Assembly (NCBI GenBank): GCA_964016885.1
Contig: OZ024746.1
Span: 64,418,001 to 64,482,000, forward strand
DNA from: Eledone cirrhosa
Taxonomy: Eukaryota
Reading direction: 5' to 3'
Length of the DNA stretch: 64,000 nucleotides
The position numbers and the translations under genes are program-made. Under the pieces are notes generated by a model that did no database searches, was not told where the DNA came from, and saw only the letters and a program-made list of their open reading frames with translations. Of this stretch, positions 17,689 through 43,178 are shown in pieces; positions within the stretch are counted from its first letter, which is position 1; each line of letters opens with the position of its first letter.

Positions 17689-17697
17689 GCACACACA

Positions 17698-18455: not shown

Positions 18456-18486
<31 letters not shown>

Positions 18487-18538: not shown

Positions 18539-18593
18539 ACTGCTATAGATGTTTCGGTGACATCCATCATTGGCTGTGACCTCTTCAGGCAGT
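18539..18593 (-). ncRNA. Minimal type-I hammerhead ribozyme motif in a Penelope-pLTR-like fragment (~18480-18700)
   Basis: Minus strand ACUGC-CUGAAGA-GGUcACAgCCA(auga)UGGaUGUcACC-GAAAC-aucua-UA-GCAGU, followed by AAUAAA. The 15.2-16.2 pair is C.A rather than C-G. Confidence 0.7.
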
Positions 18594-18697
18594 CCGAATT
18601 GGTGTGGAAAAGACAGGTACACATGTTGTTGAAGTGTGTTTTACTTCGTCAATACATCGATATGTCCAGCTCCTGGTTGTGTTGTTATTCTCCTGAG

Positions 18698-18755
<58 letters not shown>

Positions 18756-18799
18756 CCCCGTCCCACCACCCCCACTCCATCCACACCGCCCCCTTCTAT

Positions 18800-19093
18800 G
18801 TAAAGTTATGTTGGTGCCACACCATCCAGGCCGAAACAAATGAGATCGTGTAGGTGTCACGACAAAAAAACACACAGTCCACGCTGTAATGTGGCCGTGT
18901 AGGCAACACGGTAAAAACCTCCCAGACCCACACTGTAAATGTGGTTGGTGTTAGGAAGGGCATCCAACTGTAGAAAACCTGCCAGACAGTCCTATGCGAG
19001 CAAGACAATCACTCTTGCCTCAAGTGGGAATACCCCCGTCCAAACCCATGCAAGCGTGGTGGAACACGGACGTTAAACGTTGATGATGATGAT
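18800..19093 (+). mobile_element. SINE with RTE-derived 3' tail ending in (GAT)n
   Basis: GTGGTTGGTGTTAGGAAGGGCATCC body and tail CCCATGCAAGCGTGG..ACACGGACGTTAAACG(TGA)n; near-identical to 58107-58432 on the minus strand. Confidence 0.85.
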
Positions 19094-19318
19094 ATATATA
19101 TATAATCATGGCCATCATTAAATGTTTAGTGTCATCATTATCATCACCATCGTCTAGCAGTTTGTGTTCATATATTAGAGCTAATATAATTTTCCTGTAC
19201 CATATGCTGTTCATAGACCAGTGCAAATGGCAAAATAAGTTTTGCTTCAGACAAAATACCCACTTTTGTGTGCATTTAGTTACACTGGCTTTCCCTTGTT
19301 TGTACTTGCAAGAGAACG

Positions 19319-19542
<224 letters not shown>

Positions 19543-20308
19543 GATTTTTTTACAACAGATTACAGTAATTGTGGATACACCTTAGCTTTAAACAAGTAAT
19601 AAATTGGTAAATCTGTATAATAATATTCATCATAATAATGATTTGTATAAGAAGAAAAATATAAACAGTACAAACAATACTGATCAGCCAGAGAAAATAT
19701 CATGTCAGACAGCTATCAAATGTTATTATAATAAATCTTATGAAATTAAGTGAGAAAATAGTCAATGGCTCAATTGAATAAAGAAAACTTCTCAAAACAT
19801 ATACCTCTCTTATATATTAAAGTTTGTGTATTAACTTATTGTAACAGTTGTATTTGCTGTAAATTTATATAGCAGTTGAATAGCACCAGTCATCACTGAT
19901 AGAATAAGAATATTCCATGGATTGATATATTGGTGGTAATGTTGAAAGAGAAAAAAGATAAATGGACTTCCGTCAGTTTCGATATTGAGTGATTCTGTTG
20001 TTTGATCAGTGGAATAGCCTGCTTGTTAAATTAATGTGTAAGTGGCTGAAGATTCTACAGGCACCCTTGGTCTAATTTTCGGGGAGATTGTGTTTTATAG
20101 TTACTGACATGGCTGGTCCTTTAAATTAGAGATACAGTCCATCTGATGGGTTGCCAAAATAGTTTTTGTTGACCTGGTTTCACTAGGTTTTTTAACCCGA
20201 ATCTATCAAATATGTTACACAGTGGGACCAAACTCCTTTCATATGTTCTTTTCCCTAGCTGTACCCATAATTTCCTTCGTTTGAATTAATTTTAGTTTTT
20301 CTAAGGGC

Positions 20309-20755
20309 TAGTAAATAGATTTGTCAATTGAGTTGTAGTCAACATGTAACAAATAGATTTATCAGTTGAAGTATATCCAACATGTAGTAAATAGATTTGT
20401 CAATTGAGTTCTAACCATCATGTAGTAAATAGATTTTGTCAGTTGAGGTCAATTGAGTTATATCCAACATGTAGTAAACAGAGTTGTCAGTTGAGTTATA
20501 TCCAACATGTAGCAATTAGAATTGTCAATTGAATTATATTGAACATGTAGTAAATAGAATTGTCAGTTGAGTTGTATTGAATATGTAGTAAATAGATTTG
20601 TCAGTTTTGTATCGAAAATATAGTAAATAGGTTTGTCAGTTGAGGTATAGCCAACATGTAGTAAATAAATTTATTAGTTGAACATGTAGTAAGTAGATAT
20701 GTCAGTTGAGTTGTTTCGAATATGCAGTAAATAGGTTTATCAGTTGAATTATAGC
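20309..20755. repeat. ~38-bp minisatellite, about 12 degenerate units (CATGTAGTAAATAGATTTGTCAGTTGAGTTATATCCAA)
   Basis: Direct inspection. Confidence 0.92.
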
Positions 20756-21409
20756 CATCGCCTTTTGCTAGTGCAAATAATGGAATACTTGGTGATATCC
20801 ACAAAACTAATTTAAAACTTATTTCCAATAGCCATGATTCAAGGGAGAATAGTATCAGTTACTATTTGTGGTATATATCATTTGCAGTGTAATATCTTCT
20901 TTGGTAGCGGTAAGATCAATTATCTAGCCTACTAGTTGATGATGATGGTGATTAATGTTAATGAGCAAGCATATATATGTGTGTGCATCAGTATACATAT
21001 GAGTTTAAGTATGTATATAGGATTTGGGGGAAGTATTGTATATGTAAAAATTGGGGGAATAGTTGGAGGTGAAACATTGAGGTGGCAATGTAAACATTTT
21101 GCTCATTTCAAATATTTGATAAGATTTATATTTAATTTCCTTGGAAATTAAATATAAATCATTAACACTAAATAATCTTCCTCACCACCTCTACTATCAT
21201 TATATTACTGCAAACACTACCATCAGTTAATGCTGCCAGTAAGTCTACTGTGTTTGAAGGTACCATGCATAGTGATTAAAGTGTTGCACTCATAATTGTA
21301 TAGTTGTGAGTTTAATTCCCGTGTTGTATCCTTGAGCAAATCACTTTATTGCAGATTGTTCCAATCTACTCAACTGGAAACAAATTAATTTCAATGTCCA
21401 CCTAACAGA

Positions 21410-21570
21410 CTTCAAAACAGTTTCTGTCTATCAAACTCCTCTCACATGACTTGAGTTGACCAGATTCTGTGGTAAAGGATACTTGTCCCAGATGTGATGC
21501 AGTAGGATCAAAGATGGGACTTTATGATTGTGAAATGAACTTCTTAATCATTTGGCCATGCCTGCATCCA
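21410..21570 (-). mobile_element. Degenerate CORE-type tRNA SINE
   Basis: Similar to the + copy at 43915-44075 and copies at ~6140-6270, 23010-23175 and 60680-60830. Confidence 0.55.
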
Positions 21571-24451
21571 CATATACAACTAGGGAAAGAAAGAAAGATG
21601 TCCTAAGAATAAGAAAACCTTACAGGGAGGATAGGTGTATCAATCACCCCCCCCCCCCCCAATATGAAGCAACATATATGGTGAATCTAATAAGTAGTAA
21701 CTTGAGTGACTTTAGGGAAGTTTGTATTTTGAATGTATCATGCTGAGACATTTCATACAATACTCTGAACTCATGAGGGGTTTTGTAATGTTTACATAAA
21801 GTAAATATGTTCAACAATATTTATCTTAAAAAAGAAGAGTAAATTACCATGTTAATTCGTATGTGGTATTTTCTTAAAATCACAAACAGGGTCATGTACC
21901 TACTTTCTTCTGCATTCTACAAAATCTAAGTATTCTGTTGTTTTAAAGTACAGTGTTATTAACCTCATGTTATGTAGTTGAAAATATGCATTGCTCCTCA
22001 TTATTGATTAGTTAGCATTAATTTATCAAATTATGTAACTAAAAAAAAAGTTATCATTCACCCAGATTTTATTAGGGTACAGTTGCCATGACATTAGCTT
22101 ACTGAACAACTGACTATAAAATCATGATTTCAAACACTTCTGCAATAGTTGTTTCACCATGCATGATGCTTCTGGGCACAGCTCCTTTATTAGCATCAGC
22201 TAATCTAGCTGAAAAATAGCTATTTCACAGATGAATGTTCAGCATTACAAGGAAAAGTCAACTATCTTTAAAAGCAATTCACATTAATATTTGCAGGATC
22301 CTCTATCATAAAATATCATGAAAAAAGAGGAATGCTAAACTGTTTTAAAATATCCAGTTCATATTGACATGGATGGTTAAATATATATCATTATGATTGT
22401 CAATGAAGCTTCTACATGGTCACTTGAACTGTTAGAAATAGCAGTCAAATACCCCCCCCCCCAAAAAAAAAAAAATAAATAAAGAGAAAGGTCATATTAA
22501 GAAATGTAGTCCTACATATAAAAAAAGATAAGATGCTCACAGCTGGAATATCTGTGACAAGGTGTGCTTGGTCAGGTATGACTTGGGGCTACACAACAAC
22601 ATTGGCATAATCATCATAATTTTATTGTAAATATTTTTTATGTTGTCATGGGTTGGATGGGTCTTCAGCATCACCACTGCATCATGTTGTCAGTGAGGCT
22701 AGCCATTTGTATATCTCATTCTTTGTCATGTTTTCCCTCTGCTGATGGCATATGGTAATTTTTCCTACATACTTCAGCTAATGCCTTTAACTCTCTCAGC
22801 TATGATCCACCTAAAGCTGCTGTTATTAAAATATTGAAATTTAAATTCAAATCGTAGACTGAATATTTTTTTCTGGGTTTATCAGGGAAGACTGATGAGA
22901 AGAAGTTATTCTCAGACAGAAGACTTAAACTTCACTAAAATCACCCATGGACCAAGTGGTAGTATTAAACTGGGTGACATTACATCTACCACCTCTAAAC
23001 AAGAACAGTTCCTTTTGCAGGATTTCACATAGTTTCCCCTCTACCAAATTTTGCTCAGAAGGTTTGTTTGAGCAGAGGCTGTGATGGAAGGCACTTGTCT
23101 AAGTTTCCGCACAGTTTGATTGAACCCTAAACCATGTAGTTAAGAAATGAATTTAACCACACAGCCATGCCCATGTCTAGTTAAGACTAATACTACATGA
23201 AAGATATGTTTCAATATGAAAATATTTGTCTTTTATTTAGTTCACCAAGCCTATCTTCATTCTTGATTATTCTGAAAATAAGACGCAGAGCTTCCTGTTA
23301 GAAATATGGCCTCAAAAGGGTTAATTTTTAGCTTCAATCATGATTCAGTTGTGCTTCCACATTCATACAAGTTAATGTTACATCTACAACAGATTGTAAC
23401 TGTCTTATTTTTTCACAACCTTCACTGATTTTACATGTTCAGTGCCTGTGTCTCATTATGTGACATGATTTATTGTAGCATCATATTCTTTACATATGCT
23501 CCCAGGCTTCATATGGTCTATCTTTTGTAGAGAGAGAGAAAGAGAGAGAGACCTTTTGTTATCAGCTCAAGCTGAACTTTCTCCACTCATTTCTTGCTCT
23601 AGAGATCACATTCTCATTATAACTGCACTCACACTAATTGCACTAATTAGGTCACCTAGGTAACAACAATGTAAGTCACTTTCATCAAATAGAATCTGGT
23701 AACCTGAACAATAGCAAAAACTAATAGTCAAGTCACAGTTATCCAAATCGGACTTGCAGGGAGTATTTTGTTTGGATAAATGATTGTTTAGTTAACTGAT
23801 TGTTCAGATAACTAATCTAATTATAAACAAAGGAAGCCATACTGAGTATAATTACATTAAAAAAAAAACAGGTTTACATTTGTAAGTCATTCAATCAAGG
23901 AAATGTACTTTATGCCCTTTCACCTTGATTCAGGTGCTGTAAAATCTTGCTTCTCTCTTGATTGTCTTAGGTGGTTGTTTTCTTGTCAGTCATGGTAAAA
24001 ACAACAAACTCAATTACTTATAGCGGTTATATACATATATATGAAGCAAAGTTGTTGTGGAAGAGGATGGGAAACATGACAAATACCAACAATTCTGGTT
24101 GAATATCTATGTTTACTTCATTTCAGCAAAAAGGAAAAAAAATATGATTCCTTTGAATCATAAATATAAAGTTTGATTATAGTATTCACAAATTAATATA
24201 ATGTTCAATAAGGCTTCTGTGTTGTGCGAGGGTCTCTTTATTTACCATAGGATGTTCCCTTAAAAAGTGACAAGTTGTAGTCAGACAGTACGTACCAGCA
24301 GAGGTAGTAGTAGTAGTAAACTCTGTCATGGTGAGGTTGTGTTGTACAAGCAAAGTGGCAGTGAACTGTGTTGTCTAGGATAAGAGGCAGATGACTGAGT
24401 ATTAGGACCACAGGACAGCCTATTTATAATGACACACACACACACACACAC

Positions 24452-24479
<28 letters not shown>

Positions 24480-24483
<4 letters not shown>

Positions 24484-24807
24484 CTAAAACAGAGAATGTC
24501 TGTCTGTCTGTCTGTCCGATCACTAAAACTCGAGAACCACCCAACTGAATTTTTTCAAACTTTACACATGTAATACTTATGGTCCTGTGAGTGTTTTGAG
24601 CAAAATAAATTTCAAATTTTCAATGCCCTACGGACCGCATTAGGTGATTAGCGATCTTTTTCTATAACTCTTAGTCTTTCTCTTTTTAGATAGATACATA
24701 GATATAACGTTGCACCCTTATAATATCAGTCTGTATGCCTGGCTGTCTCCATTACAACATTATGACGCAGCTGTGTGTGTGTGTGTGTGTGTATATATGT
24801 ATATATA

Positions 24808-24855
<48 letters not shown>

Positions 24856-25425
24856 TGTAACGTTTTTCTAAATATTTACTTCTGCGTTCACAGATTGATT
24901 TTTTTTTAGTTTCAGAAGATCCCGTTAAGGGTGAAAGCAGCGATTCTTTGCTTAAATTTTAATCTGTTATTTTAATATATATATATATATATATATAATT
25001 ATATATTCAGTCCCCGTCCCACCCTTGCAAGCAGGGAAAAGCGGACGTAAAATGAAATGATGATATTCGTGTACAGATATTTTTGCATACACAATAACAA
25101 ATTATAAACAAAATTATTTATTTCGCGATAAAGTATTGATTTTCTTTGCATGGAAAAAACCCCTGGTAATCTACAAAAAATTTTTATTTATAAGCTCAAA
25201 ATGTAGACACCATCCCGAGGCTGAGGTATTCCGTACTTCTCTGTACTGTTTTATATATATATATATATATATATAATTATATATTCGTGTACAGATATTT
25301 TTGCAGACACAATAACAAAATATAAACAAACATATTTATTTCACGAGGCTTGATAAGGCTAAATATATATAAAATATTTAAGAACCCTAGAGCAAATGCC
25401 GAGCAACGCCGGGCCATTCTGCTAG
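24480..25425 (+). mobile_element. Non-autonomous Helitron
   Basis: The 5' end lies in (TA)n followed by (GTCT)n. The 3' end has a GC hairpin CCGAGCAACGCCGGG and terminal CTAG (25422-25425) followed by T. No TIR or TSD. Confidence 0.75.
25009..25062 (+). mobile_element. 54-bp extreme 3' stub of the young RTE LINE
   Basis: CCCGTCCCACCCTTGCAAGCAGGGAAAAGCGGACGTAAAATGA matches the LINE 3' ends at ~27870-27910 and ~63765-63805. TSD ATATTC at 25003-25008 and 25063-25068. Confidence 0.88.
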
Positions 25426-26095
25426 TGTATATATATATATATATATCACCAGACCTCCCTCATAATGTGACCACTCAGATGCTGGCCTGACTTGTCTCAT
25501 AACGTGGACAATCCGTTTAACCCATGCAGGCATGGAAATAGACGTTAAACGGTGATGATGATGATGATGATATATATACTTTGAATAAAATCATTGAGTG
25601 GGTGAAGTCACCTCCAATTTTACTATGCTTTTAAAATCCTTTAAAATGGCAGTCATTTTTATGTGTTATGGTTATTTTAATGCCAATCCACTGAGAACAA
25701 ACAAGCAGGCTGATCAACATGTGGTACTTTTGATAACTATAAACCAAAGATGTGATTATTGTACTAGTGTCAGTAAACTTCTTTGATGTAATGTTTTTAC
25801 AAATTCTTCAGTGATTATAATTCACTTTCAATCAATCATTTTAAGCAAAAAGACAAAATGATAGTACTAGAAATATTCTGAAATTCAGGTTACACACAGT
25901 AGTGCTTATTAAATATTCACAGGATCTCAAGATTGTGTTTGGATACTCTGAAATTTAGATAATTGTTGTTTGGATAATCAACATTTGACTGTACTCACAA
26001 ACAAGCTAATGAAGAAGCATGTGATCATAGCTTGATCTGCTAGAAACAAGCGTTAAACCTCCTTCAAATCACACACTACTGTCTAAAAAATAAAG

Positions 26096-26128
<33 letters not shown>

Positions 26129-27855
26129 GTTTAACGTCCGTGTTCCACGCTTGCATGGATTCCTAGATATTGTGTAAGTCTGTATGTACTTATGTATGTA
26201 TGTATGTATGTATGAACATTTAAAAACCTATTTATGTACATGTAAGTTTATGAATGCATTTTGTGCCATAAGGTAGCAGAGAAGACATTTTTTTCCTGAA
26301 TAACACCTAACATTACTACTCAGTGATGCAGGCCTGGACGGAATGGGGAAGCATTCTTTTGTGCGTGAGAGATCATGTGCAGGCTGCTTCATGGTCCCTG
26401 TGGACAAAATAGAGAAAACATTGCCCCAGATGTTGAATAATAGCAGCTCACAGTTGGAAAGTCTTTGATCAAGGCCTAGCTTGGGCTAAACAATAACTAA
26501 CTAGAAGTCATCTGAACAGTTCATGTGGGTTCCTCCTAATAATTACTCTTGTACATATAACACATTCAAAATCCTTCATCTATATGAGTATTCCAGTGGT
26601 TCCCTTGCACCTATTGCTTTTGATAATATCAAAGTGAGGTTAGTTTCTGGTTGTCTGATGCATATATGTTAAATTAAATTTAAGTTATAGTTACTGCATC
26701 ATGCTCTTAATCATCCAAGGAAATTCCACAATTGTATGATGGACAACTATCTATCTATTCACCATCATAATGGTGGTGGCTAAACCATTCACCAAAGAAA
26801 ATAAATTAAGTGTAGACATGAAGAATTACGAGGAAAAAAAATCAAATCATTGAATATCATTAGTATAACCACAAACCTATATTTCTCATTTTAATTTCAC
26901 TGTTCTTTCTTCATTTCCCAGTAAATTCTGAAGACTTACGGTTGAGAAAATATTATTTAGCAATAACTACACAAAAAAAAAATCAAATAAACAAAATAAA
27001 ACAACAAAAAACAAACAACAGCAACACACAACAAAACAAAAAACAAACAAGTAAAAGTTAATAAAAAAAAATTAATTCTTTGATATCCCTTTGAGTTGCA
27101 GGATATCAAGCTGAAAGAGAACAGTTATTTTTAGTTTATTTCCCCTTTAATAGATGTGAAAGGAATATATAGAGTTCAAATAAACAAAATAGAAAAACAT
27201 CAAAATCTGGAAGTTTGAAATACTTACTGTAGAATTTAATGTCTTTTCTCTGTTTGTAAGAGTATCTTTCTATCGTTCCTTTCTTTAATGTCTACAACTT
27301 CTGTCTGGCAAGTTGCTTTCATTATGCTAATCGTGTGTTTTGTTTGATAAATATACTTTTGTTGTGAATGTTTGAAAGCTAGTCTGCACCCAAGAAAAGA
27401 TTTCCCAACCAAAAACTGAGTTAGTTTAGAAAAAAAAAAAAAAAAAATTAAATATGTGTTTACAATTTTTAAAGAGTGTTTTGTGTATATATATACAAAG
27501 TGAATGTGAAATCAAATAAAAACCCAAACCCAAAGACTTTTAATGTTCACTTTGTAAGAAACGGTCTATTAAAAGAAAACGTAAACACTTATTTGCCATT
27601 CAATCTTAATTTACCTATCACAGAAAATAAATAAATAAAAAAACCTAAATTGAAAATTATTTAGTTTATAACAAATGTGTAAAGCAACACATTTATTATA
27701 TAGTTGACCAAATATATGTTAGAGTACAGGTCACATATCTGAGACATTGCAGCTGATAGACGTACTTTTATTCTAATTTCATCTGAGAAAGGACTATTTG
27801 TTTGACAGGCAAGTGGTTCAGTGTACTACTAAAATGGTATGGCCTCTGGCCCACT

Positions 27856-28556
27856 CATCATCATCATCATTTTACGTCCGCTTTTCACTGCTTGCAAGGG
27901 TGGGACGGGTCTTATTCAGCACAGCATCTCTCCACTCGTCACGGTCCTTCGTCATCTCCACCGTGAGCTTCAATGATTTGAGGTCTGTTCTCAACACCTC
28001 CGCCCATGTTTTTCGTGGTCTACCTCTATCACGTCTTCCTTCAACTGGCATTTCCTGGCACTTCTTCACCCATCGGTCATCCTCCATGTGCATCACATGT
28101 CCATACCACCTCAGTCTCCCCTCCCGTACACTACATTCTATCCCTCTCAGACACAGTTTCTCTCTCAACACATTTATGCTGGGTCGTTCACGCACATTTG
28201 CACTGCACATCCAATGGAGAATGCTTGCCTCATTTCTCTCCAGCCGTCGCATATCCTCTGCAGTTGCTGCCCATGTCTCACTACCATGCAGCATCGCGCT
28301 CCTCACACAGGCATCATACAACCGACATTTCGTACGCAGGGAGAAACCCTTCTTCGTCAGCAGAGGAAGTAGCTCCCTAAACTTCTTCCAACCCGTCCTT
28401 ATTCTAGATACTATGGCCTCGGAACACCCTCCTCCCATGCTAATCTGATCTCCTAGGTACCGGAAGCTATCCACCACTTCTATAGCGCACTCCTGCATTT
28501 GAAAAATGTGTCTATCAATGCGACTTCTACTGTCTAATTTCCCTGTACATCTACAT
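27856..28556 (-). mobile_element. 5'-truncated young RTE LINE (C-terminal ORF plus (GAT)n tail)
   Basis: ORF 27872-28696 contains VVDSFRYLGDQI...RLRWYGHVMHME...GRPRKTW; its N-terminal part is read-through from flanking DNA. Confidence 0.95.
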
Positions 28557-28714
28557 GTGCTACTTATTTCCTTTGCCTGTCTTCTAATACAGCTACAGCA
28601 TGCTCTACCTCTCTTAAATTGCCATAGTATAGCGTTATCACTATGTCTCAAGACCAGTGACTCTGAATGTGAAGCAAACATACCACAAATGGACAATTTG
28701 AAATTGTTCTAAAT

Positions 28715-28899
28715 TTTACAAGCATTCTCATTACTTATATTTACTATTGTATTTTCACAGAAAAGGCTTTATCCCACATAATTATTTCATATAATATTGA
28801 ATCTATTATTTTGAGAACAATACGTTAACGATTCGTTTGAGCAAAAGGAGGTGAAAGAATTTTGGCCAGATACAGCCGGTTCAAATGCTAATGGGTTAA
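28715..28899. mobile_element. Degenerate copy of the piggyBac-like MITE
   Basis: Right end AATGCTAATGGG-TTAA and internal similarity to 10383-10518; left TIR decayed. Confidence 0.6.
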
Positions 28900-30202
28900 C
28901 ACATATCACATTTTTAGATTGAGGGGGTATCAAATTTGTTGAGGTGTGATGAGACATGGAGCAAAAAAATTAAGAATCATAACTATAGACTCCATACTAA
29001 ATACTACACATTTCTTCCTTCCCAGAACTGCTTCTCTCTGAAACTACTTGTCAACTTAACAATTAACTCTTACTTTAAAATTCTAGGAAGGCTTGCAAAA
29101 ACCATAAATACTGCTTCTTCAGACAGACTAATAAAAAGTTGCCAATTCTACTTAACCATTTAGATTACAATCTGTTTGAAACTGCTCCAGGTTTTATAAT
29201 ACATCATAAAATGTTCATATTTAAATTAAAACTTACCATTATAATTTTATGTAAGAACTTGCTAGTAGGGAAAACATGTTAAATGATGATAAACTTTCTA
29301 TTCAGTTATATTCTAATAATTTATTTCTAAAATTGGCTCAATAGCAGCAATTTAGTGGGTGGTGGGGAAGTGAGTAGGAATTTGGTTATATTAACTCAGT
29401 ATTTGACCAGAACTTTATTTTATTGACCCCAGAAGGATGAAAGGCAAGATTTGAACTCAGAATAGAGAGAACCAGAATGAATACTGCTGTGGCATTTTAG
29501 CTGTTGCTCTGCCAATCTACCACCCATATTCTAGTAATAAAACATTAGCTATTTAACTGAATTTCTTCAAATTCTTGGTTATTTTTGAAAATCAATTGAA
29601 ACTGATAGGCAGTGTATTTCATTAGAAATATTGTCATGAAAGGGTGAAATCAGCATGAGAAAGAATTCATTAAAGCAAGTGTTGATGGTGCCATTAAATC
29701 ATTTATTTCATAGTGGGTGCAGTATTTTGTAGTTGTAGTTCTGATAGCTTGTGTCTAATTAGGAACTGTACAGATTAATTAATTTCCCATTCTGGAATAA
29801 TCTATTGATAATATTTCTTTTGATGAATATGGCTTGGGAGAGTTTAGCACGTTGGATCTCTGGGCACAGCAAGAATTGGTTTCACATTATTAGCAATTTC
29901 CATTACTTCCTGTGTGATAAATCAAGTTTCCATAAATTGATAATACATTGCTTGTTAACTTTGGGTGTTGTTGGCAAATTTTACAGTGGTTTCCTAGTCA
30001 AAGGAATCACCTTTTGATTTTTCACTTGCTTTTTACTTGATTTTCTGCCTGAGTTTCCTAGTAGGTTCACCTCTTTTAGTCATGCATTCTTTTCTTTTGA
30101 ATCTGGTTTTGTTATCCTACCCATTTATTTTCTTTTGTGTTTTATCACCTTACTTTCTTCTACCTTCTCTCTGCAATATGCATTTGTCCTGTATACATAT
30201 AT

Positions 30203-30526
30203 ATAGGGAAATACAAAGTTTAGATGATAAAGTCCTTTATTTATAAGGCTGTGATACACATTTCGATGATGACAGTGACCACACGATTCGGCGTAGTACC
30301 CATTGCCATGATCTCATCAGACAGCTTCTTACATAATAACGTTACAATCAAGGAGGTAATCCAAAATTGAAGCGACAAGGGGACGGACAAACAGCGAATG
30401 CCTGTTCCTCTGTGAGATGATGGCAGTGGGTACTACACCGAATCGCGTGGCCACTGTCGTCATTGAAATATGTATCACAGCCTTATCAATAAAGGACTTT
30501 ATCATCTAAACATTGTATTTCCTTAT
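30203..30526. mobile_element. Tail-out inverted pair of Penelope-pLTR-like units
   Basis: ~115-bp inverted arms 30203-30317 and 30413-30526, each carrying hammerhead stem II/GAAA/UC and a downstream AATAAA. Confidence 0.75.
30248..30325 (-). ncRNA. Minimal type-I hammerhead ribozyme with complete canonical core
   Basis: GCUGU-CUGAUGA-[G...C long stem II]-GAAA-U(gugu)A-UC-ACAGC: 5-bp stem I, G10.1-C11.1 pair, AUC cleavage triplet. Confidence 0.8.
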
Positions 30527-30606
30527 TCTGAAAATACTCCATCACTCCTATGTGGAAAATGCATGTGGAGTTCTTGAATTGAATTACATCAATGTTTTAC
30601 TGTATG

Positions 30607-30667
<61 letters not shown>

Positions 30668-30669
30668 AT

Positions 30670-31099
30670 GTGTATGTGAATTTTGTATATCTAAAGATAT
30701 TTAATTAATAAACATAAATAAACATTTTGAAAGCCCAACTATGAATAGAAGGGCTGACAGCCAACGCCATCTATCAGATTCCAGCAGAAGCAGCAGGGGA
30801 TAACTGCCTATACATTTTGAACTCTGGCTCTCATCAGGACAATGCCTCCCCTTGCTTACTGCTGGAATTTGAAACAGGTGAAAATATATAGTTTTTTGGG
30901 GCTTTTGTAGGTGGGCTCATTAGCCTCATTTGCAGATGGAGCTGTGTAAGTTGGCTCAACTTGAAAGTAGAATTAAAATTTAGCTTCGACATAGTTGTAT
31001 ACATACATGTATGGGAATTTCGTATAGTTAAAGATATATGTTATGTTTAATAAGTAAACATTTTGAAAGCCCAGCTATGAATAGAAAGGCTGACAGCCA
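30670..31099 (-). mobile_element. Retrozyme/pLTR-like unit, ~336-bp period with direct repeats and a decayed hammerhead (30803-30843)
   Basis: Direct repeat TAAACATTTTGAAAGCCC..CTGACAGCCA at 30719-30763 and 31055-31099. Minus strand AUUGUC-CUGAUGA-GAGC(caga)GUUC-AAAA-ugua-UA-GGCAGU at the tip of a longer hairpin. Confidence 0.6.
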
Positions 31100-31596
31100 G
31101 CACTGTTTAAAAAACAATCTCTTTGGTTTTTGATGTTATTACATTATTATGCTATTTTCTTTAATAGGATATTTTTCTCAAGTTTACTGATTATAAGAAT
31201 TATATATATTGATGTATTAACTAAAAACAGGAAATGGCCAATATTTAAAAAAATCCGACATCTTATTTTATATCAATCTTATTTTAAAAACAAACATCTT
31301 TTGTGTTTTATATATTTAGTATATTAAAATAGAGACATTTCAAGTGTTTGTTAAAATTCAACCCTTTCATGAAACAACTAATGATTTGCTCATCAAGTAT
31401 ATTATATCCGACATTGAAATTTTCTTTTAATAGATATGTAACCTATATAAATGATATCTAAAACACTAATAAGAAACCCAACTAAATAAAACAATCATTC
31501 AACATATGATAGCATGATAGTAGGTAAAAACAGCAACAAAATATCACATAAATTATTAATACTGCAAATATTATCACATGTAAATAGCCAGCCTTT

Positions 31597-34340
31597 CACA
31601 GTGTTATAGTCACCACAGTGTTATAGTCACCACAGTGTTATAGTCACCACAGTGTTATAGTCACCACAGTGTTACAGTCATTACACTGTTATAGTCATCA
31701 GTGTTATAGTCATTACAGTGTTATAGTCACCACAGTGTTATAGTCATTAGTGTTATAGTCATTAGTGTTATAGCCATTGCAGTGTTATAGCCATCACAGT
31801 GTTATAGTCACCACAGTGTTATAGTCACCACAGTGTTATAGTCATTACAGTGTTATAGTCACTAGTCACCACAGTGGTATAGTCACCAGTCACCACAGTG
31901 GTATAGTCATTAGTGTTATAGTCATTACAGTGTTATAGTCACCACAGTGTTATAGTCACCACAGTGTTATAGTCATTACAGTGTTATAGTCATTACAGTG
32001 TTATAGTCATTACAGTGTTATAGTCATTACAGTGTTATAGTCATTAGTGTTATAGTCACCACAGTATTATAATGACCACAGTATTATAGTCACCACAGTG
32101 TTATAGTCACCACAGTGTTATAGTCACCACAGTGTTATAGTCATTACAGTGTTATAGTCACCGCAGTGTTATAGTCACCACAGTGTTATAGTCATTACAG
32201 TGTTATAGTCACCACAGTGTTATAGTCACCACAGTGTTATAGTCATTACAGTGTTATAGTCATTACAGTGTTATAGTCATTACAGTGTTATAGTCACCAC
32301 AGTGTTATAGTCATTACAGTGTTATAGTTACCACAGTGTTATAGTCATTACAATGTTATAGTCATTACAATGTTATAGTCATTACAGTGTTATAATCATT
32401 ACAGTGTTATAGTCATTACAGTGTTAATGTCACAACAGTGTTATAGTCATTACAGTGTTATAGTCATTACAGTGTTATAGTCATTACAGTGTTATAGTCA
32501 TTACAGTGTTATAGTCATTACAGTGTTTTAGTCATTAGTGTTATAGTCATTACAGTGTTAATGTCACAACAGTGTTATAGTCATTACAGTGTTATAGTCA
32601 TTACAGTGTTATAGTCACCACAGTGTTATACTCACCACAGTGTTAGTTGTCACAGTGTTATAGTCACCACAGTGTTATAGTCATTACAGTGTTAATGTCA
32701 CAACAGTGTTATAGTCATTACAGTTTTATAGTCACCACAGTGTTATAATCTTTACAGTGTTATAGTCACCACAGTATTATAATGACCACAGTGTTATAGT
32801 CACCACAGTGTTATAGTCATTAGTGTTATAGTCATTAGTGTTATAGTCATTACAGTGTTATAGTCATTACAGTGTTATAGTCATTACAGTGTTATAGTCA
32901 CCGCAGTGTTATAGTCATTACAGTGTTATAGTCATTACAGTGTTAATGTCACAACAGTGTTATAGTCATTACAGTGTTATAGTCATTACAGTGTTATAGT
33001 CATTACAGTGTTATAGTCATTACAGTGTTATAGTCATTACAGTGTTATAGTCATTACAGTGTTATAGTCATTACAGTGTTATAGTCATTACAGTGTTATA
33101 GTCATTACAGTGTTATAGTCATTACAGTGTTATAGTCATTACAGTGTTATAGTCATTACAGTGTTATAGTCATTACAGTGTTATTGTCACTACAGTGTTA
33201 TAGTCATTACAGTGTTATAGTCATTACAGTGTTATAGTCATTACAGTGTTATAGTCATTAGTGTTATTGTCACTACAGTGTTATAGTCATTAGTGTTATA
33301 GTCATTACAGTGTTATAGTCACAACAGTGTTATAGTCACCACAGTTTTATAGACACCACAGTGTTATTGTCACCACAGTGTTATAGTCATTACAGTGTTA
33401 TAGTCATTACAGTGTTATTATCACCACAGTGTTATAGTCATTTGTGTTATAGTCATTAGTGTTATAGTCATTACAGTGTTATAGTCATTTGTGTTATAGT
33501 CATTACAGTGTTATAGTCATTAGTGTTATAGTCATTAGTGTTATAGTCATTAGTGTTATAGTCATTACAGTGTTATAGTCATTACAGTGTTATAGTCATT
33601 ACAGTGTTATAGTCATTACAGTGTTATAGTCATTACAGTGTTATAGTCATTACAGTGTTATAGTCATTACAGTGTTATAGTCATTACAGTGTTATACTCA
33701 TTAGAGTGTTATACTCATTACAGTGTTATAGTCATTACAGTGTTATAGTCATTACAGTGTTATAGTCACCACAGTGTTATAGTCATTACAGTGTTATAGT
33801 CATTACAGTGTTATAGTCATTACCGTGTTATAGTCATTACCGTGTTATAGTCATTACCGTGTTATAGTCATTACAGTGTTATAGTCATTACAGTGTTAAT
33901 GTCACAACAGTGTTATAGTCATTACAGTGTTATAGTCATTACAGTGTTATAGTCATTACAGTGTTATAGTCATTAGTGTTATAGTCATTACAGTGTTATA
34001 GTCATTACAGTGTTATAGTCATTACAGTGTTATAGTCACCACAGTGTTATAGTCATTACAGTGTTATAGTCATTACAGTGTTAATGTCACAACAGTGTTA
34101 TAGTCATTACAATGTTATAGTCATTACAGTGTTATAGTCATTACAGTGTTATAGTCACCACAGTGTTATAGTCATTACAGTGTTAATGTCACAACAGTGT
34201 TATAGTCATTACAATGTTATAGTCATTACAGTGTTATAGTCATTACAGTGTTATAGTCATTACAGTGTTATAGTCACCACAGTGTTATAGTCATTAGTGT
34301 TATAGTCATTACAGTGTTATAGTCACCACAGTGTTATAAT
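31597..34340. repeat. ~2.7 kb minisatellite, 17-bp unit CAGTGTTATAGTCA(TT/CC)A with 15-bp variants, roughly 160 units
   Basis: Direct inspection; copy number estimated from length divided by unit size. Confidence 0.98.
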
Positions 34341-35094
34341 GTTCAGAGGGTTTAGTGTGTAATTTTGTGCTATCAAACCATGATTGATGAATTTTGCACT
34401 TTATTCTTCCAAAATCTTAGAAAACTGTACCAGTAAACTATATACACCTCCTCTAAGCTGGATAATGTTGGATAGAGTGCCTTCTGGTATCTCTTTTGGT
34501 TCTCTGAGTTCAAATCCTGCAATTTGAATAAATAAAACACCATTATTATTATTTTTCTTTTTCTTGTTTCTTTTTCTTTTTCTTTTCTTTTTCTTTTTCT
34601 TTTTCTTCTTCTCCTCCTCCATTCATAAGAAGTTGGTGAGGGATAACTTGTGATAGAAGCTCTACTACTCCATCAGGAGTTGAGATCTTAAGAAAGGAAG
34701 AGAGTACCTTCTATTTTACAAAATCAGTTCTTGTGAATCATTGCATTAAGTTGTTATTGTTGTTAACCATATGTTTAATTTACAATACATCAGATTATTT
34801 TCCCTTATCTTTTTACATTGTCTAAAATAATGCTGTATTTATCTGTTTATGTTATATATTTCTTTTTCTCTGTTATATACGATAAAGGAGAAATCACCTT
34901 CCCATCTTCCCTTGTGTAATTATTAAGATCTTAATAGAATCAAAGTTTGGTTTTCTAACTTTATTTCTCCAAGGTAGACTAGCTACATATTTGCCAAGAC
35001 AATACCTGGTTTCCTTTGCTTCACAGCCTCATTAATTTCCGTTTCATTCTTTCTAATTGTTTCATGTATGATCTAACATCTATTTCTCCCACTT

Positions 35095-35257
35095 CTCACT
35101 CCCTCTCTCACTCTCTCTCTCTCTCCCTCTCTCCATCTCTTTCTCTCCCTCTCTCTCCATCTCTTTCTCTCCCTCTCTCTCCATCTCTCTCTCTCTCCCT
35201 CTCTCTCCATCTCTCTCTCTCTCCATCTCTCTCTCTCCATCTCCCCCCTCTCTCTCT
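35095..35257. repeat. CT-rich polypyrimidine repeat
   Basis: Direct inspection. Confidence 0.9.
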
Positions 35258-36039
35258 AGTTATTATATTTACTTCCTTTTCGTATTTTGCTCCTTATCCC
35301 AAATGAATTGTTTATGAATAACTGATTCCAATACATCAGAAATACAGGAATATGAACCAGGAGATAGAATCTAGAAACTTCACTTTCCTATTAATCTTCA
35401 AAGTAGGAAGTATAGATTTATTTCAAAATGAGTTTTAAAGGGATTTCATTACATTCAATGCTCAGTATTCTTTTGTTTAAACCTAGATATTTAGAATCAG
35501 TATTTAAATACACAAACACATGTACATACACTCACACACATCTATGTATGTATGTGTGTATGTATATCATTACACATTTTACTGCAGCAACACCCAGATG
35601 TCATCACCACCATTTGACACCCATTTTTCCACGCTAACATGAGTTAGACAAGTTGTTTCCTTGTGGGACAAGACAGACCAGGTGATGGTATCTTGCTTGT
35701 ACAGAACTGTTCCTGGCTTGTTTTCTCTGGCTGGATGCCCTTTCTAATGCCAACCACATTTACAGCATGGTCTGGGTGCTTTTTAGTGTGGCACCAAAAC
35801 AACCAACTAACAGGGTGGACTAAGAGCCTTTAACTATTTCAGCAGCATTGTAGGAGAGTGTGCCCAGTTTTTCATGCTTGTATTATGCATGGGTTGGACA
35901 AGAGAGGTGTATCATATATGGAAGGTGTGTGGGGAGGGGTTAGGGAGGATGTAGTGCATGTATGCAGGATGGGGATTGGAGAGGTTGGTCTAAGTTGGGG
36001 TACCTAGCTGATGAAGTTGTGGTGAGTGTTAAGATGTAT

Positions 36040-36780
36040 GAGCTGTACTGATGAAATATTTTACAATCCGAAACACCTCATGTTTCTAATTCTCTTAGCA
36101 CAGAATATTGGCAAACCTTTCTTGTTGAGGTCTAGTTTTTCATCTAGTTGTTTGTTATTGTTGCTTGCTTCCTTCTTTCTTCCAGTCTTTCTAAGTCTGT
36201 CTGTTAGTTTTGTTACTCCATTCCACTTCCATGTCACCTTCTGTCTAGCTGGAATCCTGCTCCATCCATAAATCTGCTCTGTGGCTCACATAGAAGGTTG
36301 TCTTGTAGAACCACCCAGTCATCTTTCTCACCATTTGTGTTAATTAATATTTCTTTCAACCTATGCCTGAGAGATATTTCAGTTTCTATATCTTTCCTCC
36401 TTGAATCTATCTAGCTTTTATATGGAGCATTCTGTTTACTTGTCTTTAGTGAGTGGTACATTCTTTATCAAGGAAAGACTTATTATTTATGACCAGTCAT
36501 CCATCTTACTTCTTAGTCAGTATAAAGTCTATTTGGCTTGTATGTTCAGCTAAGTGGTAGTTGGTCAAGTGGTTGACCACTTTCCTGAGGTTAGTACTGC
36601 AAATGATTATGTAATTTGTGTCACAAAATCCCAAGAACCTTGATCCTTCTACATTGATCCTTAAACCATACCCATGCCAGAGTAACAATCTTGATGTTAC
36701 CCATCCTAGTCATTAAACGAAACAGCTGTAATAATGAGGTCACTGCCATTTATTATTGAGGTAGTCTGCAAGAGGGCATT
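36040..36780 (-). mobile_element. Decayed RTE LINE fragment (APE endonuclease end plus linker)
   Basis: HGYGLRINVEGSRFLGFC...SQIDFILTKK (APE C-terminal motif); FANIL / EVFRI similar to the linker of the element at 1-1250. Confidence 0.75.
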
Positions 36781-37506
36781 GTTTGAAATCTGGCATTGTT
36801 TGAAATTTATGTTGTCAACAATAACGATTTTACATAACAAAAGCTAATTAGAAATTGAATAAAATCATATAAAATCTTTTTTTTCATTTTCTTTACATGG
36901 ATTTGTTTTATTTTTTGTTTTCGTTTTCTTTACATGGATTTCAGTTTTGATAAAGTAAAATAAATAGAAGGTAACAAGAATTTGGAATGGCTTCTAGTTA
37001 AATTAGAAGGAAAAAAACATAACAAGTGTAGAAAAACACGATTTTCTCTATTTTACTTGATTTTAATATTTTGTAGTTTGATGTAAACAGAATATAATGA
37101 CATTTCTGTAGCATTTAAAAAAATTCTCTTTAATATTTGGAATTTATAAGTTTCAGTTTTGTATCATACTGTGCTGCTTGTTTTTCTTATTGAAAATATT
37201 GGAGCATGAGATTGAAAAGGTATGATGGGTTGGTTGACGAGGAGAGAGTACTGTGAATGATATAATGATAATGGTTTAGTTTAAGAAGTGGAATAATGAT
37301 GTGTACAATAGGTGATGAGATGAAGAAGGAGGGAGGAGATAAGAAAGGTGTTGATATTGCTGGTGGTGCTACTGAATAATAATTGTTTCTACTTTTGGCA
37401 CAAGGCCAGCAATTACACAGTGCATTACTGGTACTTTATTTTATCAACCCCGTAAGGATGAAAGGCAAAATACTATTGCTATAGTTCTCTATTAGTTGTG
37501 AGGAGG

Positions 37507-37642
37507 ATTGTGAGATATACAGATGATGCGAGATATAGAGATGATGTGAGATATAGAGATGATGTGAGATATAGAGATGATGTGAGATATAGAGATGATG
37601 CGAGATATACAGATGATGCGAGATATACAGATGATGTGATAT
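37507..37642. repeat. 18-bp minisatellite (GATGATGYGAGATATASA), about 7 units
   Basis: Direct inspection. Confidence 0.92.
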
Positions 37643-37756
37643 ATGTAAATATATCACATCATTTGTATATCTCATGTATGTGTATAGATATGTATATATA
37701 CATCATCATTTAATATTTGCATACCTGGTTAGCAAGGGTTTGTGTGTGTGTATATA

Positions 37757-38093
37757 TAATAATAAGCAGGCTGGAGCAGAGTATCAAGATTGTATCTTAT
37801 ACATACAAACATATTCTATTCACACAAGTGTTTCGTTATCGATCTGCTCAAGGTTCAATAGATTACAATCAGGCCTGACTCTGTAAGCGATAGCTCCTCA
37901 GACATGTGAGTCTTTGATACACATATTTGTAAGTAAGCATTTACACATAACTCTCATATCCGAGGAGCTATCGAATACTGAGTTGGGCCCGATTGTGATT
38001 GATTGTACCTTGAGCTGATCAATAATGAAACGTGTTGTGTGAATAAAATATAAGATGCAATCTTGATAATTTGTTCCAGTCTGCTTATTATTA
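37757..38093. mobile_element. Second tail-out inverted pLTR-like pair with decayed hammerhead motifs
   Basis: Inverted arms 37757-37911 and 37950-38093. Minus copy CUGAGGA-gcuaucg..cgauaac-GAAAC; plus copy CCGAGGA...GAAACGUGUU-GUGUGA(AUAAA). Confidence 0.65.
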
Positions 38094-38269
38094 ACACTAT
38101 GCATGTTACAGCTGCTAATAACCATTAATAATAAGGGATTAGATGACCACATCTTGCTAAACCGTCGGAAAATGTAACATTTTGTTTTATCATATCTCTT
38201 CACCAAACTTTAAAAATATATGTATATAGAAGCAAGGTGCTGTGTGGTTACTGATTAAGTGTGTGTGTG

Positions 38270-39387
38270 TGTATATATATATATTAATTTCAACAACATC
38301 AGTATTCCGTGTGTCATAATTCTCGATTATCATTGGTTCATAGGTTTCAAACGACTCCGCCCTCCTCAACGACGCCAAACTTAAATTAATACGCATAATG
38401 CCAATGAGGAAGTGAGAGCGGAGAGTAAGAAACAGAGAGGCAAAGTGAACGCTGTAACTATTACCATGTGTACGTGCGCATATGTTTGTGTGCATGCATG
38501 CAGCGTTCCACAGAAAGTAAGAACTATCAACATGTGTAAGTGTGTGTAAGTGCATGGGTGCGTGTGTAAGTTTGCTTGCGTGTGCGCATTTCCATGCGTG
38601 TGTGTGTGTGTACGTGGGGCATTCCACAATCGCCACGCAGTTTATCTGTCTGTGCGCCTGTCTGTCAGTCTAACATATACAGAGTTGTGAAGGGAGTAAA
38701 TAGGGACCTTTTTTTACATTGACAGACATCTGTTATATTTATTATTGTCATTTTTTGACAATTGCTCGAAATGAAAACTGATAATAAAAGCAATTCGACT
38801 TTATCAAACAGTGAACTACAGCGGCGACGGCGTGCAGCCAGAAATGAAGAAAAACGGGCCGAACAGCGCTATCGGAACACCGAACTTCAGAGGCGAAGAC
38901 GTGCCGCCATGAATGAAGAGGAGCTGGCTGAACAACACCAACAAAACACTGGAGCCAAGCAGTGACGGCGTGCTGCGATGGTTGAAGACGAACTGGCTGG
39001 GCATCATCTTTTATATTAATTATCCATATGTATATCTACATATAATATAAAAGATTGGAACTTCTATCATCCTTTTGAGAAACGTGGAACAACCACGTCT
39101 ATGCAATGATACCTGTTTTACAGTCAGGCAGAGGATGAACCATCTTCTAGAGGTCACTATTCTAGGTGGGAGCACCTAGAATTGTTCATATACTATGCAC
39201 AAACGGTACAACGAAGAATCTGGTATATCTGGAAGATCTTTTTTTTTTTTACTGTTTTCTGTATCACACAGACTCCACGGACTCGCCTCATACTGTAACC
39301 AGACAAACATCTAATACAGTCATTTTCTCTTTTATCTGTCTTCTCTTATCATCTGTTTACCCGGGCGAAGCTGGGTACATCAGCTAG
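38270..39387 (+). mobile_element. Internally deleted Helitron retaining RepHel fragments (5' boundary approximate)
   Basis: N-terminal-type repeats ELQRRRRAA..EE (38762-38965); Pif1 helicase segment ILLRNVEQPRLCNDTCFTVRQRMNHLLEVTILG (39066-39167); C-terminus NGTTKNLVYLE; 3' hairpin CCCGGGCGAAGCTGGG plus CTAG (39384-39387) followed by T. Confidence 0.85.
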
Positions 39388-39817
39388 TATATATAAAATT
39401 TAAAATGGTAAGAATTGTCACAGTCCTTTGGCTTAATGGTTAAAAATGCCTCAATGGGATTTGGGGAGGTATGAGATTTGATTCCTCATAATCGCCAATG
39501 GCAACTTCTTTTTTGTTTTTAATAGTCTTCATCCTATTTTATAAGCTATTGAATAACATTGCTGTGAATGAGCTTATTCTTTATATTAACTTTATCTTCT
39601 CAGCACTTTGTAGAAATCTGAGAGATCTGTTACATGTACATGTTGTTTACTGATGATGTTTGTTGACACCTGAAAGCTGTGATTCAGCTATCTAACTTAA
39701 TACAGTAAGAGTTGTCATAGTCCCTTGGCTTAAAGGTTAAAAGTACATAGCTGGTATCTGGGAGATATGGGGTTCAATTCCTTATAGTGGCCGATAGCAG
39801 CTTTTTCCGTGTTTAAG

Positions 39818-39878
39818 GCTCTCAAACCAGCAAAATGGTTTTGCAAATTGTGTAAAACCATTTTGCTGGTTTGAGAGC
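39818..39878. repeat. Perfect 25-bp inverted repeat (hairpin)
   Basis: GCTCTCAAACCAGCAAAATGGTTTT-(11 nt)-AAAACCATTTTGCTGGTTTGAGAGC. Confidence 0.92.
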
Positions 39879-40153
39879 TGATGAAGGTGAAGATGTGTGT
39901 ATGTGTAAACTTGTCTTGTACATTACCTTTCTTTATTTCCTCTTCCACTCACTTCTCTGTGCCAACACACTTCTCCTTGTCCTCCTCCTCTTTCAATCTT
40001 TTCTATATTTCATCTGGCTGTCACCCACCTTGTGAATTGTCTCTCTGTTGACCATTGGCCTCTGGTCTCTGTCCTCTGAGGCATTTTTGCTCATCGCTGT
40101 CTTTGATAGCATTTAGCTATTTTAACAGCAGTTCTAGCGATACCATTTCATCA

Positions 40154-40194
<41 letters not shown>

Positions 40195-40264
40195 TACATA
40201 GCAAAATTATAAAATTAAATTGTTATGGAATACCAACTACAAGTCATTTTTTTCCTCTTTTCAA

Positions 40265-40295
<31 letters not shown>

Positions 40296-40762
40296 CACAC
40301 TCACACTCACACTCACACTCACACACACACACACAACTAGAGTTTCATGCCTCCACCCTGAAACTTTTCCTCATAACTTTCTTAATAATGCATATTTTTT
40401 AATGACATTTTGCAGGGATACAGTTTATGAGGTGTAAATTACGATTATATTGGTGAAATTTAAAAAAAAATTCCTCATAATTCATAGTTGTGTTAGAAAT
40501 GACATTACATTCCTGTATGAAATCTATGCCATTATCCTAATCGATATTATTCATTATCAATATGAAATTGGTTGGTGTGTAGCCTACTACAAATACAGAT
40601 CAAAAGTATTCAGAAAATGAAAACACTAGTGAAACGGAAGTATACAATAATGGAAGTCTAAAAAAAATTAAATTTTGTTTTTGTTTTTAATTTCATCAAA
40701 ATAATCATAGTATACTCCTTTGGAAGTGTCTCTCCAAAGATCTTTGTGAGGAAACAAATTTG

Positions 40763-40796
<34 letters not shown>

Positions 40797-41175
40797 CATA
40801 AAGTGTGTGTCTTATTTTACTTTTACATAGCTTAATTTGTTCCATTGACTGACTGTCTTCAACCCAAGGAAGGCCAGATATAGATAGATAATTACAGAGA
40901 GAGAGAGAGAGATAACTAACTGGCAGATATAGCATGTTTTTGTAAAAACAAAAGACAAAAACAAAACAAAAGACAAAACAAAACAAAAATTGACTGCAGA
41001 ACATTTCCTTGTCTTTTGCATGAACTTTTAACTGATAAGAACAACTCTTTAGAAATGGTATAATAATATCATACCGTGACAGACGGATATAGAATGCTGT
41101 ACAACTTTTATAATACAGATTTGTATATTCACAAGCACAAGTGGAAGATGGATGTTAAACGATGATTATGATGAT

Positions 41176-41519
41176 ATAACCAAATGAAAAGATATATGTA
41201 TATATAGAGAGCGAAAGAGCCATATATCGTACAAGGAACACGGTATATTGTATCATCATCATCATTGTTTAACGTCCATCTTCCACACTAGCATGGGTTA
41301 GACGGTTTTGTTCCATTTGATGCGGGAAATGTTGGGAAACCGTGTCTCACTTGTATGGAAGTTTCTCCGGCATGTTTTTTTTTTGTATATATGTACATAT
41401 TCTACTATAGAATATGTATTTGGTATATATATATATACAATATACCGTGTTTCTTGTATGATACATGGGTCTTTCTCTCTCTCTATATATATACATATAT
41501 CTTTCCAGTTGGTTGTTAT
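41176..41519. repeat. ~80-bp inverted repeat pair enclosing a SINE tail
   Basis: 41176-41251 versus 41436-41519 reverse complement (CAAGAAACACGGTATATTGTAT shared). Confidence 0.75.
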
Positions 41520-41849
41520 GACTCTAGATAAAGTCTATTGAGCTTGCTTATTGAGAAACACAAAATTCTAAACATATTTGTTATGTTTTGATTCATTATT
41601 TGTATATAGATATGTGTATATATAATATATATATATATATAAATAAATAAATGTGAAGAAAGAATAGACAAAAATATACCTATTTTTTCTTCAACGTCCC
41701 GACTGCAGTTTCACTGACTGGCCTGACCATTAGAAGTGAATAATTCTTGGGAGGGAAAAATCATGTGATATAGCAGTCACAGAAGGGAGGTAAAGGCTGA
41801 ATGTTTGGCGAGTACTACATTTGCTGAAAAAAGCAGCCATCACCCATTG

Positions 41850-42105
41850 TCAAGGAAATGTCCTTGCTTGATATGTAGAAAATGTGTAGCTAGAAGTTCC
41901 ATAGGGTTTACTCAATGAAAATATTGATACACAAGAGATATAGTTGGATTGCAAGTAGACTAACAGAGAAAGTAGACTTTGAATGTGACAGATGCACAAA
42001 AAGAATAGTTAACAGAAAGAGCAGCAGAGAAATATACATTCTTCAATCCAGGGAAAGTTCCACAGAAGTAGTTGATAATTTCTGTTATGTAGGTAGTGAA
42101 AGTTG
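41850..42105 (+). mobile_element. Decayed RTE fragment covering the Cys/His finger region
   Basis: IHKRYSWIASRLTEKVDFECDRCT...EVVDNFCYVG, homologous to 63007-63210. Confidence 0.7.
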
Positions 42106-43178
42106 ATCTCGGGCCTATAAACATTTACCTGTAACTTCCAATGGCTGCTATGGAATTGTGTCAGAAATTAGTTTGGAGAGGTGCAGTGAACATTTTCACA
42201 CCAAGATATAAATGAAAAGTGAATATAACAGATATAGGGTCTTACTGTGGGATCAAACTCAGAATTACATGATTATAAACTGAATTTCTTAACCACGCAG
42301 CCATGGTAGTCTCCCTTTTGAGTTACTTTACTGTAAGGATATGTATATATTGGGAATGAGACTTGTTAACCATTCAGACAATCAACCAATAAAGTAAATT
42401 AATTAAAGAAAATGTGAAAGTATATATTTTCATTGTAAGCCACCATAGTTTTTGAGGCATCGTATTCGATAACATTATGTACTCACTGACTTTGTTCTTG
42501 AAAAATACCCAGCTTATATCGTTGGATTACAAATGCTCGGTTTAATGATCTCTGAAAAGTGCTTATGAAGATTTTCCAGTTCATGGCTCCAGAAAATTTT
42601 CTCTCTTGCTATGAAAAGCCGATAACCTTTTTACAAAGTGCAAATATACAGTACATTAGAAGAGTACACACATATGCGTGCACATACACATAAATACAGA
42701 TATTGTATATATATATATATATATATGAATTGATAGAAACGCGCTGAAAGAAATGGTTGTTTGCCTAATAAGTGATAATTTATTAATACTCTATAATAAC
42801 TATATAACATTATCAAGCTGTGCCCCCTCTATTTATTTCATGCCTCTACTTATAACAACATAAAGGTCTTATACCTCCTCCTACTTTTCCTTCCCTTTCC
42901 TTACCTTAAAGACTTTGTACTAAGAACTTTGTCTGCACTTTCCCATACATAGACTTCGCTTTCATCAGAAAATTTGATGATGCTGTATTTGAAAGTATCA
43001 ATACAGCCTTTTGTTAAAGCTACATATTAACTCTATTCGTTCTTACTGTGAAACAGCAAAAACATATCTCTTTTTAAAATCTACACTATTTAGGAAAGAG
43101 TGTTGAATTTAATCCTCCTAGAAGACAGACAGGTTAGGAAATAACTACCATCATTACTAACTTCGATTTATTATTAAT

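Follow-up and report, generated by a model that had tools for sequence, protein, structure and literature searches.

A minimal type I hammerhead motif in an inverted insertion of a non-coding Penelope-like repeat in an intron of Eledone cirrhosa

Introduction

Minimal hammerhead ribozymes (min-HHRs) are described from the pLTRs of Penelope-like elements (PLEs), where they form opposite-strand pairs 100-700 bp apart and, in the examples given, have a helix II of 7-8 bp (PMC4209133). Variants with a palindromic helix III and a U3-A8 core belong to the same set, and in the assays reported there cleavage was absent for monomers and low for dimers (PMC4209133). Inverted and 5'-truncated PLE copies, which carry a tail at one end and show a bias toward microsatellites, have also been described (PMC8557442; PMC3846280). 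For the PLE studied in PMC11167929, two start sites of reverse transcription flank the tail, a difference between the strands was absent in vitro, and the hammerhead was described as dispensable and as protein-assisted.

Here we analyze a hammerhead-like string in a 64,000-nt stretch of Eledone cirrhosa DNA, which is referred to as the window and to which all positions without a locus prefix belong. The string had been noticed from the sequence alone and interpreted as a potentially active ribozyme in an intronic fold-back (the original prediction). With high confidence, we consider it a genuine minimal type I hammerhead in the pLTR of a dispersed, ORF-less Penelope-like repeat and the likely inactive passenger of a head-to-head insertion.

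Results

The hammerhead motif

On the minus strand (30325-30248), the motif consists of GCUGU, CUGAUGA, G10.1, stem II, C11.1, GAAA, U[GUGU]A, UC and ACAGC, and every element of the predicted string, including the AAUAAA that follows it, was found again at its position (Table 1). Stem I comprises 5 bp, stem II contains 12 pairs and 2 mismatches, and stem III is formed by 2 bp that enclose a 4-nt loop. In agreement with the original prediction, the core is complete (C3 U4 G5 A6 N7 G8 A9, G12 A13 A14, A15.1-U16.1 and H17), stem I is closed, stem II starts with the G10.1-C11.1 pair, and the cleavage triplet is AUC, whose C17, the predicted site, maps to + position 30253. A hammerhead descriptor, which was composed after the motif had been seen, recovered the window motif, with two matches in the window versus none in 19.2 Mb of dinucleotide shuffles searched on both strands. 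The motif is not a product of chance. The proposed covariance-model check failed to support it: a search of 28000-33000 against Rfam returned nine matches at E<=10, with no hammerhead family among them. Folded singly, the 78-mer is no more stable than shuffled versions of itself (z 0.06), and in its minimum-energy structure the core is base-paired to the cleavage site. Positions 30235-30325 are covered by three contig sets of one sample, possibly the source sample, with 0, 0 and 2 differences.

The other descriptor match in the window is a second minimal type I hammerhead that belongs to another family; it is located at 18539-18593 on the minus strand and adjoins (TA)n tracts. It reads ACUGC CUGAAGA, a long stem II and GAAA CAUCUA UA GCAGU, is antisense in the host intron, and has relatives at loci L134 (two, 308 nt apart) and L182.

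Table 1. Positions of the features discussed (window coordinates unless a locus is given)
Feature	Position	Strand	Remarks
Host intron, RRM-domain gene	4863..58771	+	53,909 nt
Host exons	4822-4862, 58772-58938	+	AG/GT sites, in-frame join; Pfam RRM_1 on the second
Left arm	30203..30416	-	5'-truncated pLTR; ends at the short (tail-less) 3' end of the family; adjoins a TA-rich tract
AAUAAA	30236..30241	-	conserved in the family; copies extend beyond it without poly(A)
Minimal type I hammerhead motif	30248..30325	-	cleavage predicted 3' of the C at 30253
Head-to-head junction	30413..30416		TGAG common to both arms (4-nt microhomology)
Right (sister) arm	30413..30605	+	inverted, more strongly 5'-truncated pLTR; starts inside the core and extends through the tail
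3' extension (tail)	30527..30605	+	~79 nt, right arm only
(TA)n microsatellite	30606..30661		at the tailed end; likely target
Young PLE, 784-aa open frame	L129:2364-4715	+	motif at L129:5707; also at L126, L128 and L130-L132

The inverted insertion and its host intron

The 114-nt fold-back and the 14 contiguous pairs of the sister arm were both reproduced: 30203-30316 and 30413-30526 form an inverted repeat that is 90% complementary around a 96-nt middle, and this middle is the continuation of the pLTR of the left arm. Inverted arms of 114 nt flanking a 96-nt middle could also be read as the terminal inverted repeats of a MITE-like DNA transposon, in which the hammerhead-like string had arisen by chance. 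We assign practically no probability to this reading: the middle is more left-arm pLTR, most copies of the family are single-armed, the motif does not occur in the shuffled sequence, and the 5' truncation points and junctions, which vary between copies, already refute it.

The original prediction had taken the differences between the arms as support for the structure, and this part fails. Over 74 nt, the left and sister arms differ at 8 positions, all of them one-sided, with 7 transitions and 4 changes at CpG, and as these differences are one-sided and mostly CpG decay, the sister arm lends the structure no support. The C-to-G change by which the sister arm closes a mismatch occurs in none of 75 other family copies. 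The arms are 91% alike, and their median identity to the family is 88%, values that fit one template as well as two. A second ribozyme in the sister arm was considered and ruled out, since this arm begins inside the core at 30413 and has neither an intact CUGA nor the 5' strand of stem I. Immediately to the right of the insertion, a pair of direct repeats is found at 30671-30763 and 31008-31099, 336 nt apart, and a 17-nt tandem minisatellite with more than 60 units occupies 31560-32600.

The description as intronic stands, as the insertion is located within an intron of 53,909 nt in an RRM-domain gene, with the qualification that the hammerhead itself is antisense to this + strand gene. The host pre-mRNA thus contains only the broken sister in sense orientation. 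In this pre-mRNA the fold-back is predicted to form a duplex of 114 bp with about -195 kcal/mol, and one could therefore imagine that the host retained the fold-back or the ribozyme for control of the RRM gene, as an editing substrate or by antisense cleavage. Beyond the modeled duplex, the observations point the other way and render retention by the host very improbable: the divergence of the copy matches that of its family (93% identity to the family majority over the motif, family median 90%), inverted pairs are common by-products, and the nearest exon found is ~25 kb from the hammerhead. The window further contains RT-bearing LINE fragments (1-1329, 27777-28708 and 63207-63854), which we take to be RTE-like.

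Size, variation and structure of the repeat family

Within the 3.0 Gb genome, a search with the arm yielded 1983 candidates, of which the best 40 were scored, and a family 19-mer gave 353 exact matches versus 0 for its reversed control. Copies of this non-coding Penelope-like repeat are scattered and number at least several hundred. An alignment was built from 75 of the 79 motif-spanning matches in the examined loci; the truncated sister, one inverted mate with an identical sequence and two likely segmental duplicates were omitted. One family insertion is present in several segmentally duplicated copies at G000:C4 319.86-320.56 Mb (L091, L092 and L148-L152).

Frequent variants among the 75 copies affect N7 (U in 55, A in 16), loop II or the mismatch positions, or else preserve pairing, as does a U-A/U-G split in stem I (42/30). 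Of the alignment cells at stem positions, 90.3% are paired, as opposed to 26-59% in slid controls. The family covariation appears to be modest: pairs with a two-sided change number 3 versus 3.9 in shuffles, one-sided changes are many, and the single two-sided swap (U-A to G-C) is confined to one subfamily of 9 copies. RNAalifold returned an empty structure for all 75 copies; for the 25 copies with both an intact core and the G-C closure, it recovered stem I together with parts of stem II, including its base. An intact core is retained by 46 of the 75 copies, and the core together with G10.1-C11.1 by 25. Core bases decay at the rate of other positions, and G12, which lies in a CpG, decays fastest (10/75). 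The structure reflects selection on the source elements and not on the inserted copies. The long stem II, which the original prediction had singled out as unusual, is real; it is not peculiar to this family, as further hammerhead families of this genome have it as well.

An abundant subfamily (L160, L177-L196) carries U at both 10.1 and 11.1 and keeps its pairing further along stem II. It includes many complete pLTR-body-pLTR copies and fits the hammerhead fold poorly. Further hammerhead families with a palindromic stem III, either AUAUAUAU or AUACGUAU, were seen at L132:1374, L159, L160:2754, L177, L182 and L135:6495.

Element anatomy and insertion pattern

The source element is composed of a pLTR with tail, an AT-rich, non-coding body of 1.0 to 1.9 kb with an internal microsatellite, and a second pLTR. 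Same-strand pLTR pairs are spaced 0.95-1.7 kb apart in 22 of 26 cases, in a set of loci that was chosen by body searches and is consequently enriched for such pairs. Two features by which EN+ PLEs are recognized were found in the family, namely direct pLTRs in partial tandem with a hammerhead in the pLTR, and inverted 5'-truncated copies with a one-sided tail.

Of the adjacent pairs on opposite strands, 34 are arranged head-to-head and 2 tail-to-tail. The 3' ends of family copies cluster at two places ~79 nt apart, and a microsatellite adjoins the short end in 47 of 59 cases. Both outer ends could be classified for 24 of the 34 head-to-head junctions, and 23 of these combine one short with one tailed end, for which an expectation of about half gives a binomial p of 1.5e-6; a single insertion that was duplicated probably accounts for two of the 23. 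The one exception is likely to read through to a short end. The window insertion, with its short left arm, tailed right arm and 4-nt overlap, follows the same rule. The two arms of an insertion are usually closer to one another than to the family median. In the head-to-head insertion L003:1505-1927, the arms are 83% alike and one of them is 97% identical to another subfamily (L012), which suggests two RNA templates in one event.

Some arms continue through the pLTR and on into the body, which would need a multimeric or circular template. Given that the ends of the copies lie 3' of the cleavage site and that some copies extend into the body, their templates may have been uncleaved or religated. 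Such read-through is also compatible with a non-LTR retrozyme that spreads by circular RNA monomers released by the hammerhead, and so are the non-coding nature of the family, the hammerhead in every unit, the partial tandems and one 350-nt unit (locus L169). This classification seems unlikely to us, given that the units mostly measure 1.0-1.9 kb, are dispersed and form no arrays of short monomers, and that the inverted PLE layout is dominant. Partial tandems with two hammerheads were found at L160 and L182 and are absent at the window locus; longer arrays were not seen. The retrozyme reading and the assignment to a Penelope-like pLTR repeat differ mainly in name.

Search for an autonomous partner

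The original prediction had proposed a search for linked Penelope RT/GIY-YIG ORFs, and none was found between pLTRs or linked to the family. In 14 element bodies, tblastn with 7 PLE protein pieces detected neither an ORF nor similarity to PLE proteins, and the longest open frame among 126 matches to the body translation measures 268 aa. Walking 5' through the body, a translated search and the inspection of 18 8-kb regions likewise gave no linked ORF, in genome searches that scored the best candidates, and the pLTR of the family has no similarity to five PLE 3' regions. Judged by these searches, the family is non-autonomous, with no RT/GIY-YIG ORF linked to it. Since no autonomous element sharing the pLTR was found, the assignment to a Penelope-like pLTR family, which is otherwise supported as originally proposed, rests on architecture.

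Two candidates were rejected in the course of these searches. PLE ORFs beside copies L081, L084, L190 and L191 are separate neighbors with other end repeats, and the idea that the body begins with the remains of a GIY-YIG end found no support (best tblastn E 0.18). Fragments of other Penelope-like clades are located at L081:2841-4860, L089:806-1600 and 3530-4269, and L085:2109-2501; at L089 a short hammerhead directly follows a GIY-YIG frame, and at L081 one is nested inside a copy of the studied family.

A possible source of the mobilizing machinery is a young and abundant PLE in the same genome, identified among the best 148 of 12,987 candidates scored, whose 784-aa open frame carries Pfam RVT_1 and GIY-YIG domains and which we take to be Neptune-type. 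Two of its ORFs are 99.6% identical. Its layout also involves (TA)n and head-to-head copies, and its 3' region has no similarity to the studied pLTR. In its pLTR motif, a U3-A8 core is combined with GCAA replacing GAAA, while older relatives (L133, L135-L138) keep GAAA and have a palindromic ACCGGU stem III. The sequence of this motif suggests a successful family with a putatively dead ribozyme.

Predicted activity of the window copy

The consensus stem III of the family is the self-complementary AUAUGUAU, found in 51 of 75 copies. Loop III of the window copy reads AUGUGUAU, owing to a private A-to-G change (1/75), and the predicted energy of the 8-bp dimer stem rises from -2.2 kcal/mol with AUAUGUAU to +3.8 kcal/mol with AUGUGUAU. 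A palindromic stem III for dimer pairing is thus a property of the family and not of the window copy. No second family hammerhead is present on the same strand within the 64-kb window. In the energy model, adopting the active monomer fold costs 5.7 kcal/mol relative to the ensemble, which is among the lower values of the 25 intact copies (4.4-18.1 kcal/mol), and when both arms are part of one RNA, the active fold lies ~80 kcal/mol above the fold-back.

These predictions bear on the suggestion that the window copy is an active ribozyme, be it as a monomer, in trans with a family transcript or aided by a protein. Its intact core, G10.1-C11.1 pair, stem I and stem II are in keeping with activity, and so are the comparatively low monomer penalty and the protein-assisted cleavage published for a PLE hammerhead (PMC11167929). 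As the hammerhead in that report was active only with its protein, energy models may underrate the window copy. Activity is nevertheless distinctly unlikely in view of the damaged palindrome, the missing same-strand partner, masking by the fold-back, the antisense orientation to the host gene and the single min-HHRs reported without cleavage in PMC4209133. The label "potentially active" is therefore unlikely to hold for this copy, which according to the models is probably inactive.

Discussion

The formation of the window insertion could be envisaged as follows. By analogy with published PLE hammerheads, two hammerheads in a tandem source transcript might pair via a palindromic AUAUGUAU stem III and undergo cleavage in the dimeric form. 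A (TA)n tract would be cut by a Penelope-like RT/GIY-YIG protein supplied in trans, and both sides of the cut would prime cDNA synthesis, at two fixed sites that lie ~79 nt from one another on RNA that is uncleaved or religated. 5'-to-5' joining of the two truncated cDNAs through a 4-nt microhomology would then produce the layout that is observed, in which the left arm lacks the tail and the right arm carries it, and the copy would subsequently decay neutrally. As a more general and tentative proposal, which we regard as possible but doubtful, Penelope integration might be obligatorily asymmetric, with two fixed RNA priming sites, one per side and sometimes on two RNAs, and hammerhead catalysis might be dispensable in vivo. 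The latter part is based on the youngest autonomous family and the abundant subfamily, both of which spread with broken cores.

By itself, the window ribozyme is of little significance, as it is one decayed member of a well-described class. The family adds a lineage to the known range of PLE hammerheads. Literature searches on hammerheads and on Penelope/Neptune elements in octopus and cephalopods yielded no report of such a family, and one may be listed in the supplements of PMC4209133 and PMC8557442 or in repeat databases. The many inverted stubs of the family represent a natural record of PLE reverse-transcription priming and of whether the hammerheads have to cut.

Compared with the metazoan non-LTR retrozymes described in bioRxiv 10.64898/2026.07.22.740005, the family shares a non-coding sequence, a type I hammerhead and a probable mobilization by PLE proteins, and it differs from them in its long units, partial tandems and dispersed stubs in place of short-monomer arrays. 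The EN+ PLEs characterized in PMC3846280, PMC8557442 and PMC11167929 have tails of 30-40 nt, in contrast to ~79 nt here, and contain an ORF that the family copies examined lack; head-to-head arms, an overlap at the junction, a tail at one end and a microsatellite or AT-rich target are common to both. In comparison with the metazoan PLE min-HHRs presented by Cervera & De la Pena (2014; PMC4209133), stem II extends over 14 positions instead of the typical 7-8 bp, the extra base between positions 9 and 10.1 is absent, and the palindrome is closed by two G-U pairs. The full core, the G10.1-C11.1 pair, the short stem I, a stem II that is longer than usual, the palindromic stem III of the family, and the occurrence as mostly dispersed single motifs and opposite-strand pairs are all in line with the min-HHRs of that account. 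A hammerhead in a pLTR, opposite-strand pairs and a one-sided tail have all been published before, and the window motif is an ordinary example of this arrangement.
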